Shown: positions 42,998 to 43,545, numbered from the stretch's first letter. The stretch: DNA of 64,000 nucleotides from Nostoc sp. (GCF_036917095.1 NZ_JBALFH010000002.1:35074-99073); one strand, 5' to 3'. A program made the numbers and translations. Notes: generated from the letters alone by a model not told the origin.

Positions 42998-43070
42998 TAC
43001 CCCTGACTGGATTTGAACCAGCAACCTCTTCGTTCTAGGCGAAGCGCCTCTTCCGTTGGGCTACAAGGGC
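42998..43070 (-). tRNA. Class I (short variable arm) tRNA with the Leu anticodon UAG
   Basis: GCCCUUGUAGCCCAACGGAAGAGGCG-CUUCG-CCUAGAA-CGAAG-AGGUU-GCUGGUUCAAAUCCAGU-CAGGGGU-A. It has C33, G1-U72 and A73. Confidence 0.55.
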
Positions 43071-43073
43071 AAA

Positions 43074-43148
43074 GTCTGAGTGGCAGGGATTGAACCTGCG
43101 ACCTGGAGTTCCCAAAACTCCCGCGCTCCCAACTGGGCTACACTCAGA
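43074..43148 (-). tRNA. trnP: tRNA-Pro(UGG), copy 1
   Basis: Acceptor UCUGAGU/ACUCAGA, anticodon arm GGAGU-UUUGGGA-ACUCC, T loop UUCAAUC. Confidence 0.7.
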
Positions 43149-43153
43149 TATTT

Positions 43154-43229
43154 TGGTACTCCCGACAGGATTTGAACCTGCAAAAACTAGATCCTCGGTC
43201 TAGTGCGTCTTCCGTTCCGCCACGAGAGC
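43154..43229 (-). tRNA. Class I tRNA with the Leu anticodon GAG. CCA is encoded.
   Basis: GCUCUCGUGGCGGAACGGAAGACGCA-CUAGA-CCGAGGA-UCUAG-UUUUU-GCAGGUUCAAAUCCUGU-CGGGAGU-ACCA. It has C33, G1-U72 and A73. Confidence 0.55.
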
Positions 43230-43233
43230 TTAG

Positions 43234-43307
43234 TACCCCTGACAGGATTTGAACCTGCAAAATCTGGACTCTGATTCCAGCACGTATGCCAGTTCCGTCA
43301 CAGGGGC
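43234..43307 (-). tRNA. Class I tRNA with the Leu anticodon CAG
   Basis: GCCCCUGUGACGGAACUGGCAUACGUG-CUGGA-AUCAGAG-UCCAG-AUUUU-GCAGGUUCAAAUCCUGU-CAGGGGU-A. Confidence 0.6.
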
Positions 43308-43310
43308 ATA

Positions 43311-43383
43311 TCGGGATGGCAGGATTTGAACCTGCGACTCCATGCTCCCAAAGCATGGCTTCTGGCCGCTGAATTACATCCCG
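43311..43383 (-). tRNA. trnP: tRNA-Pro(UGG), copy 2
   Basis: CGGGAUGUAAUUCAGCGGCCAGAAGC-CAUGC-UUUGGGA-GCAUG...GCAGGUUCAAAUCCUGC-CAUCCCG-A. Confidence 0.8.
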
Positions 43384-43384
43384 T

Positions 43385-43462
43385 TGGTACTCCTGGTGGG
43401 AGTCGAACCCACAACCAAACAGATTTTAAGTCTGTCACCTCTTCCAATTGGGCTACAGGAGC
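43385..43462 (-). tRNA. Class I tRNA with the Leu anticodon UAA. CCA is encoded.
   Basis: GCUCCUGUAGCCCAAUUGGAAGAGGUG-ACAGA-CUUAAAA-UCUGU-UUGGUU-GUGGGUUCGACUCCCAC-CAGGAGU-ACCA. Confidence 0.6.
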
Positions 43463-43468
43463 AAATTT

Positions 43469-43545
43469 TGGTGCTCTTGGTGGGAATCGAACCCACAACA
43501 TACCGTTTTTGAGACGGCAGCCTCTTCCAGTTGGGCTACAAGAGC
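43469..43545 (-). tRNA. Class I tRNA with the Leu anticodon CAA. CCA is encoded.
   Basis: GCUCUUGUAGCCCAACUGGAAGAGGCU-GCCGU-CUCAAAA-ACGGU-AUGUU-GUGGGUUCGAUUCCCAC-CAAGAGC-ACCA. Confidence 0.65.

Follow-up and report, generated by a model that had tools for sequence, protein, structure and literature searches.

Five short-armed tRNA-Leu genes with all Leu anticodons

The DNA analyzed here, a stretch of 64,000 nucleotides (nt) from Nostoc sp. (GCF_036917095.1, NZ_JBALFH010000002.1:35074-99073) that we call the window, contains a tRNA array in which five tRNA-Leu genes of the short-armed, class I type carry the anticodons UAG, GAG, CAG, UAA and CAA and so form a complete decoding set for the six Leu codons, as a preliminary description of the sequence had claimed. 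The occurrence of five such genes is far beyond chance, and the observation is real and statistically solid. In textbooks, short-armed bacterial tRNA-Leu is treated as a Streptomyces rarity. The only biochemical study that we found takes the same view (PMC6614811), and the evidence presented here points the opposite way: short-armed tRNA-Leu is the usual form on cyanobacterial long tRNA arrays (L-arrays) and is common in phages. The five-anticodon set is routine in the stress-induced arrays of cyanobacteria, and tRNAs of the same type occur in hundreds of sequenced phages, including phages of Escherichia coli K-12. This raises the question of how an ordinary bacterial leucyl-tRNA synthetase (LeuRS) handles a short tRNA-Leu, and why mobile elements prefer the short type. 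For the window itself the meaning is modest, as it holds one more copy of a known array.

ARAGORN called 29 tRNA genes in the window, 27 of which form one minus-strand array at 41334-44729. Its five tRNA-Leu calls, 75-78 nt long and all on the minus strand, lie at 42997-43071 (UAG), 43154-43229 (GAG), 43233-43307 (CAG), 43385-43462 (UAA) and 43469-43545 (CAA); it called no long-armed tRNA-Leu within the window. Counted to position 73, the five genes are as follows.

42998..43070, minus strand: tRNA-Leu(UAG), 73 nt, class I; variable region AGGUU (5 nt), G1.U72, A73, C33, no encoded CCA
43154..43229, minus strand: tRNA-Leu(GAG), 73 nt at 43157-43229 plus CCA at 43154-43156; D arm UG GCGG AACGGAAG ACGC, variable region UUUUU (5 nt), C33, G37
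43234..43307, minus strand: tRNA-Leu(CAG), 74 nt; D arm UG ACGG AACUGGCAU ACGU, variable region AUUUU (5 nt), G1.U72, A73, no CCA
43385..43462, minus strand: tRNA-Leu(UAA), 75 nt at 43388-43462 plus CCA; D arm UA GCCC AAUUGGAAG AGGU, variable region UUGGUU (6 nt)
43469..43545, minus strand: tRNA-Leu(CAA), 74 nt at 43472-43545 plus CCA; variable region AUGUU (5 nt), G1-C72, an allele unique to the window (orthologues have G.U)

Each gene was matched end to end by the Rfam tRNA covariance model (model positions 1-71) with 51.5-58.8 bits, the gathering score being 29, and both ARAGORN and this model confirm class I tRNAs of 73-75 nt with variable regions of 5-6 nt. The model puts identical triplets at positions 34-36, in the loops CCUAGAA (UAG), CCGAGGA (GAG), AUCAGAG (CAG), CUUAAAA (UAA) and CUCAAAA (CAA), which rules out a shifted anticodon, a concern of the preliminary description. 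The finer details given there also proved correct on parsing: A73 is present in all five genes, the 1:72 pair is G.U in four and G-C in CAA, and C33 occurs in the UAG and GAG genes. CCA is encoded after GAG, UAA and CAA only, and the coordinates first given for these three genes were longer for that reason. The D stem has three base pairs and a 13:22 mismatch, itself a Leu-type feature. Within the array the five genes are one another's nearest relatives (identity 0.69-0.84), and it was rightly noted that no isotype other than Leu is expanded to five genes. The bodies of the neighboring UAA and CAA genes are 84% identical, which is consistent with a tandem duplication in which the anticodon of the UAA gene would have changed.

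Isotype of the tRNA bodies

The preliminary description had raised the possibility that the body was recruited from another isotype, and the features of the five genes argue against it. The class II tRNA-Leu genes of E. coli K-12 and of a Bacillus chromosome have a common D arm (UG-GCGG-AAYUGGYAG-ACGC, with a 3-bp stem, G13.A22 and a 9-nt loop), and the GAG and CAG genes of the window have this housekeeping Leu D arm; moreover, the GAG D arm and its anticodon stem (CUAGA/UCUAG) equal those of the Bacillus class II Leu(UAG). The UAA, CAA and UAG genes have a variant, UA-GCCC-AAYUGGAAG-AGGY, of the same architecture, with a 3-bp stem and C13.A22, whose loop is 9 nt long in UAA and CAA and 8 nt (AACGGAAG) in UAG. 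All five genes have the 3-bp Leu-type D stem, A15:U48 and A20a. A73, A14/U8, G18G19 and the T loop of bacterial tRNA-Leu are present as well, and the long variable arm is the trait that we did not find in them.

Naive nearest-neighbor identity to E. coli and Bacillus tRNAs is unreliable for isotype, as it also misassigned the Gly, Met, Cys and Asp tRNAs of the array used as controls; we therefore based the isotype on the architecture, the bases at identity positions, the score against a class II Leu profile and the way in which body and anticodon go together. By raw identity, the nearest housekeeping relatives of the CAG gene are Leu. The profile, from which the arm had been removed and the anticodon masked, ranked GAG first and CAG second among 66 tRNAs, with UAA also at the top, and so supports a Leu origin in part. 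As to the link with the anticodon, a 19-nt D-arm motif (GUAGCCCAAYUGGAAGAGG), exact in the UAA and CAA genes of the window (UAG, GAG and CAG have variant D arms), was accompanied by a Leu anticodon in 101 of 101 motif-bearing array tRNAs.

The likeness to the chromosomal tRNA-Glu at 51038-51110 that had been pointed out holds for G1.U72 and A73 and goes no further. A Glu or Gln body was rejected, since overall identity to tRNA-Glu is 0.51-0.60 vs 0.69-0.84 among the Leu genes, its D arm differs and its variable region has 4 nt. Judged from sequence, the bodies appear to derive from Leu, and recruitment from Glu or another isotype is unlikely. A BLAST search of all E. coli genomes with one 73-nt tRNA returned two chance matches of 20 nt only, the database being too large for so short a query.

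Short-armed tRNA-Leu in related arrays

ARAGORN was also run on 14 plasmid loci and on 80 genomic loci that we found via the HNH endonuclease encoded beside the array (see below). Together with the window, these gave 239 Leu tRNAs from 75 arrays, all of them short, with calls of 73-80 nt, and long arms are kept in the tRNA-Ser (71-95 nt, nearly all at least 82) and tRNA-Tyr (82-87 nt) of the arrays. Ten other arrays have all five Leu anticodons, among them those of a Kovacikia (Leptolyngbyales) plasmid, Tolypothrix and Cylindrospermum. Consequently, the set in the window is complete yet not unique, and homologous cyanobacterial arrays do carry the same class I set, a check that the preliminary description had proposed. 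Its claim to novelty does not stand as far as the architecture is concerned, since the window locus is an additional member of a known array family, including the Anabaena trn operon, in which short Leu tRNAs are standard; ordinary acceptance of Leu by these tRNAs would be expected from their identity positions. The trait is not universal to tRNA arrays, as the Leu tRNAs of the Firmicutes plasmid arrays matched by BLAST (L101 and L102) are long-armed and normal.

Identity positions counted on the parsed array Leu tRNAs (n = 233-239 by position) are nearly invariant. A73 is present in 238 of 239 and C2-G71 in 233 of 234, while U8, A14 and A15:U48 occur in all 234; G18G19 (232/234), A20a (231/234) and the T-loop residues U54/U55/C56/A58 (229/233) are almost as constant. 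The 13:22 pair is non-Watson-Crick in 232 of 234, the remaining two having U-A, and the variable region is never shorter than 5 nt, which equals the minimum for type I tRNALeu of Streptomyces coelicolor. For covariation we used 34 representatives, pairwise less than 93% identical, and a cloverleaf with a 3-bp D stem. In this set the paired fraction of cells is 99.4%, both sides have changed in 18 of 20 pairs, and the covariation score is 0.765 vs 0.297 in shuffles, none of which (0/500) reached it; with the pairing partners slid, it drops to about 0.1.

The arrays keep five anticodon classes, and U33 and a purine at position 37 are conserved among their Leu tRNAs. The C33 of the window UAG gene is a derived minority allele (C33 in 4 and U33 in 54 of 58 orthologues), and in the GAG class C33 is the majority state (19/23). 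CCA is encoded according to anticodon class, in 48 of 55 CAA, 48 of 70 UAA and 19 of 24 GAG genes vs 2 of 26 CAG and 1 of 62 UAG genes. At 1:72, nearly every copy has a weak pair (G.U in 191 and A-U in 34, together 225/239, with G-C in 12).

One Leu(UAA) gene of a Tolypothrix array (L086, an 80-nt call) combines a housekeeping-type D arm (UGGCGGAAUUGGUAUACGC) with GCCC-type acceptor and T arms, and its variable region has 10 nt. This gene may have arisen by recombination or may represent an intermediate stage of arm loss.

Phage and viral relatives

When IMG/VR was scanned for exact copies of the 19-nt motif that UAA and CAA have in their D arms, 98 viral contigs matched. All 87 motif-bearing tRNAs called by ARAGORN are short tRNA-Leu of 74-77 nt, with six Leu anticodons and never a non-Leu one, and the remaining 12 matches are truncated or interrupted genes. 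In six contigs (L109, L128, L133, L159, L160 and L184) the motif is followed by long non-tRNA sequence in place of the anticodon arm; such loci may hold phage tRNA-Leu genes, split by an intron or otherwise interrupted, that escaped ARAGORN. Several motif-bearing contigs are phages by their neighboring genes, which encode DNA polymerase, DnaB-type helicase and portal protein. Among 148 short viral Leu tRNAs, A73 is present in 144, A15:U48 in 142, C13.A22 in 127, a 5-nt variable loop in 135 and G1.U72 in 74.

Relatives of the window UAA/CAA pair also occur in 512 GenBank phage records, where the annotated matches are tRNA-Leu with one listed exception, a partial match on a tRNA-Trp. Escherichia phage humlepung, which is grown on K-12, carries a 92-nt Ser gene and, next to it, three Leu genes of 77-78 nt. 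Cyanophage P-RSM6 carries a 74-nt Leu gene, and Acinetobacter phage Acibel004 two of 77 nt. In these phages, in the Felixounavirus group of E. coli and Salmonella and in many mycobacteriophages, the short tRNA-Leu has the architecture seen in the window and often the same 19-nt D arm, together with A73, A15:U48, C13.A22, a frequent G1.U72, a 5-nt variable loop and a place in tRNA clusters. They differ from the window genes in their identity, which is 80% at most, in being carried by viruses instead of a regulated cellular operon, and in that some clusters mix short and long Leu tRNAs.

Proposed role and alternative explanations

The five genes are most likely leucine acceptors derived from ordinary tRNA-Leu by arm loss. 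We consider it probable that the short Leu genes belong to a horizontally spread, paralogous lineage of mobile elements, and that their products are charged with leucine by the LeuRS of the host and serve as a stress-induced back-up set. The window array is a horizontally transferred L-array of the 'trn operon' family, whose short Leu genes would have the core of an ordinary bacterial tRNA-Leu with the long variable arm reduced to 5-6 nt, the length required to retain U48. The host LeuRS, which as a bacterial enzyme would need neither the anticodon nor the long arm, would most likely charge them with leucine by reading A73, A14, A15:U48, G18G19/A20a and the elbow of the D and T loops. Under translational stress, the Leu genes would be transcribed together with the other array genes from a promoter under TrcR control, and the charged tRNAs would form a reserve that reads all six Leu codons in this organism. 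E. coli LeuRS recognizes A73, A14, A15-U48, G18/G19, A20a and U54-A58, and does not need the anticodon or the long arm (PMC6614811, PMC9976931). The presence of these elements agrees with the earlier suggestion that carriers of A73 might still accept Leu, and makes the five tRNAs possible LeuRS substrates. C2-G71 is an antideterminant against SerRS, and arm size is a major identity element for Ser; in Leu the arm matters little and, although typical, is no identity element for E. coli LeuRS (PMC9976931). That only Leu lost its arm in the arrays would be because LeuRS dispenses with it, whereas SerRS and TyrRS need theirs.

In Anabaena, the trn operon is silent in standard conditions, repressed by TrcR and induced by translation inhibitors (PMC10272220, PMC8421152). 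When its products were studied, 23 of the 26 tRNAs were detected, aminoacylated in vivo and present on polysomes (Santamaria-Gomez et al., 2021; PMC8421152); since the operon has four short Leu genes and three of its genes went undetected, at least one short Leu tRNA is aminoacylated in Anabaena. The closest bacterial parallel in the literature is the type I tRNALeu(CAA) of S. coelicolor, presented as rare, for which five nt is the minimal variable loop and which is charged, like the class II type, by the organism's own LeuRS (Fan et al., 2019; PMC6614811). It resembles the window genes in its 5-nt loop, its coexistence with class II Leu tRNAs under a single LeuRS and the importance of A14:U8. 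It differs, in a comparison made by description, in being one chromosomal isoacceptor with C48, whose A73 is unused by the S. coelicolor LeuRS, while the window has a mobile set of five genes with U48. A short-looped tRNALeu(TAG) of a Mycobacterium cluster is, like the window genes, part of a horizontally acquired tRNA cluster with an HNH endonuclease (Behra et al., 2019; PMC6582537). Unlike the five genes here, it is a single isoacceptor from Actinobacteria, described in one sentence without analysis of identity elements. The type I tRNA-Leu of animal mitochondria also has a short variable region and A73 and A14 as determinants (PMC9976931), but it is organellar, has a degenerate core and a LeuRS of its own, and shows no sign of relatedness to the window genes.

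The short-arm trait of array and phage tRNA-Leu is barely described in the literature that we searched. The original description of the Anabaena tRNA cluster is reportedly that of Puerto-Galan and Vioque in 2012. The short arm is not mentioned in the later papers on the Anabaena operon (PMC8421152, PMC10272220) or in surveys of tRNA arrays, a search that did not cover that 2012 description. On short-armed Leu tRNAs in arrays or phages, we found only the Streptomyces paper (PMC6614811) and the one Mycobacterium sentence (PMC6582537).

Several observations weigh against the proposed role of a leucine-accepting back-up set. The class II Leu profile placed CAA at mid-rank and UAG low among the 66 tRNAs, so that its support is partial, and by raw identity the D arm of these two genes is nearest to Arg or Thr. 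The type I tRNALeu(CAA) of S. coelicolor was not a substrate for E. coli LeuRS, and a special leucine-specific domain of LeuRS is reported to be needed for it (PMC6614811); the charging of class I tRNA-Leu can therefore not be assumed for every LeuRS. The two window copies with C33 have to be reckoned with, as does A37, found in four of the five window genes and in most of the decoders of CUN here, for which G37 is usual. Furthermore, neighboring genes of the array have decayed: the anticodon stem of a Trp-like gene is broken, and another gene, which resembles an initiator tRNA, has an 8-nt loop. Because of this damage selection on the window copy may be relaxed. In Anabaena, no match was seen between the operon anticodons and the codons used in stress genes, and deletion of the operon did not stop the recovery of protein content in treated cultures (PMC8421152).

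Other explanations give the missing arm or the tRNAs themselves a different meaning. It is conceivable, though rather unlikely, that the short-armed tRNA-Leu of phages and mobile arrays forms an old lineage of its own, in which arm loss was adaptive and not neutral, the cyanobacterial array being a domesticated counter-defense kit of phage origin. The loss could have allowed escape from readers of the class II shape, such as tRNA-cleaving toxins, defense nucleases, modification enzymes or the L/F-transferase, or it could have changed charging and editing by LeuRS; if so, the short tRNAs would keep Leu decoding going while the housekeeping tRNA-Leu is under attack. The preliminary description had also considered decoy or regulatory tRNAs, and we regard it as improbable that the tRNAs are made in large amounts under stress as a sponge for toxins that cleave tRNA (such as VapC and MazF) or for other factors that bind it, with little decoding, so that the missing arm would be irrelevant or even useful. 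Such a sponge was proposed in the Anabaena study, where operon tRNAs were cleaved, housekeeping tRNAs were not and codon usage gave no match; decoding would suffer from the C33 and A37 of several copies, and the weak 1:72 pair is unusual. Yet a decoy needs neither a stable set of five Leu anticodons nor conserved LeuRS identity elements, and it is the less likely use for tRNAs that conserve five anticodon classes, U33 and a purine at 37. The operon tRNAs of Anabaena are, besides, aminoacylated and on polysomes (PMC8421152), and lytic phages retain tRNAs of this type, which are usually read there as a supply for translation.

We see very little room for the view that the genes came with an acquired array and are now decaying as pseudogenes, the short arm being a deletion scar in genes that have lost their importance. 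The damaged genes next to them would fit, as would the PCC 7120 GAG copy, whose T stem is broken, the silence of the array in standard conditions (PMC10272220) and the differences between arrays in the Leu genes that they retain. We rejected pseudogene status in view of the 99.4% pairing with compensatory changes in 18 of 20 pairs, which holds across Nostocales, a Leptolyngbyales plasmid and phages; since all 239 copies have the short architecture, the arm loss must be old and followed by purifying selection. The idea of mischarging or recoding, in which another synthetase (e.g., GluRS or GlnRS) would read the short body and Leu codons would partly become another amino acid under stress, is hardly credible. 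It could draw on the G1.U72 and A73 common with chromosomal tRNA-Glu, and on the aberrant acid-gel mobility of two other operon tRNAs of Anabaena, Phe and Ile (PMC8421152). Nothing in our data points to it: the likeness to tRNA-Glu is slight and does not include the D arm or the variable region, all the Leu determinants are present together with the anti-SerRS C2-G71 pair, the body motif never goes with a non-Leu anticodon, and mistranslation was not detected in Anabaena where it was tested (PMC8421152).

The array and its locus

The homologues of the window array are tRNA arrays on plasmids of Nostocales, including plasmid delta of Nostoc/Anabaena sp. PCC 7120. With 27 genes on the same strand within 3.4 kb, it has the density, synteny and size (at least 20 same-strand genes) by which L-arrays are defined. 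Its features, and those of its surroundings, are listed below.

41334..44729, minus strand: whole tRNA array, 27 ARAGORN calls on a single strand, syntenic with the Anabaena PCC 7120 trn operon
41983..42639, minus strand: open reading frame (ORF) of a PD-(D/E)XK endonuclease inside the array, in the interval between tRNA-Gly and tRNA-Ala (PF11645, 8.8e-19)
45081..45109, minus strand: putative array promoter, with -35 TTGACA at 45104-45109 and two TrcR boxes TGTAGTAT at 45091-45098 and 45081-45088
45231-46067, plus strand: polysaccharide deacetylase gene, between the HNH gene and the promoter
46101-46493, minus strand: 130-aa ORF without Pfam match, between the HNH gene and the promoter
46510..47049, minus strand: HNH homing endonuclease, conserved companion of the array (all8564 family; Pfam HNH_5, 1.3e-16), 71% identical to the PCC 7120 neighbor

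The PCC 7120 trn operon has a gene order common with the window, from Asp-Glu through Tyr-Ser-Arg-Phe-Asn-Gln-Gln-Leu-Pro-Leu, the same HNH neighbor (71% identity) and a promoter with TGTAGTAT boxes like those upstream of the window array. It has four short Leu tRNAs (UAA, GAG, UAG and CAA), to which the window adds CAG to complete the five anticodons. The UAA gene of the window duplicates the CAA type and does not belong to the PCC 7120 type of UAA gene. Moreover, the window array is chromosomal, whereas the trn operon lies on plasmid delta, and it has an inserted PD-(D/E)XK gene and other genes between the HNH gene and the promoter. The HNH endonuclease is kept beside related arrays, and 563 relatives of the protein were found; its best matches in species genomes are chromosomal contigs of lichen-associated Nostoc (96% identity), which is why we take the window to be a chromosomal Nostoc copy of a mobile array.

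The promoter region of the window can be aligned with the PCC 7120 trn promoter and has, as a match in sequence, the TrcR box overlapping the -10 element: the putative -10, TAGTAT, falls within the second TGTAGTAT box. In Anabaena, TGTAGTAT is the site of the TrcR repressor and overlaps the -10 box (PMC10272220). It occurs six times in the window vs 1.7 expected, the other sites being at 23035, 35340, 45300 and 47401. The promoter lies about 350 nt upstream of the first tRNA, compared with about 93 nt in the plasmid arrays, where, in addition, the HNH endonuclease gene adjoins the promoter; in the window the deacetylase gene and the 130-aa ORF intervene. The promoter comparison is informative for the plasmid arrays L001-L014 and the window only, because in the chromosomal loci an upstream tRNA-Glu was mistaken for the start of the array.

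Other positions in the array deserve mention. Near the PD-(D/E)XK ORF, the sequence at 41820-41900 resembles tRNA fragments. The gene at 42910-42987 (minus strand), called tRNA-Cys(GCA) by ARAGORN, is actually orthologous to an initiator-like tRNA-Met(CAU) that other arrays have; the insertion of one G has given the window gene an 8-nt anticodon loop (CUGCAUAA); it is a damaged gene or an oddity with a four-base anticodon. A gene that ARAGORN left unnamed, at 44340-44414 (minus strand), aligns with tRNA-Trp(CCA) of other arrays and has a disrupted anticodon stem; it is probably a pseudogene, though its Rfam score is still 53 bits. Finally, related arrays have a slot, empty in the window, for a tRNA of about 72 nt whose anticodon varies between arrays, being CUA, CUU or CGA (L003 4064-4135 and L006 2609-2680; compare L001 4612-4682 and L002 5011-5083). 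The CUA version resembles an amber suppressor and is named 'Pyl' by ARAGORN.

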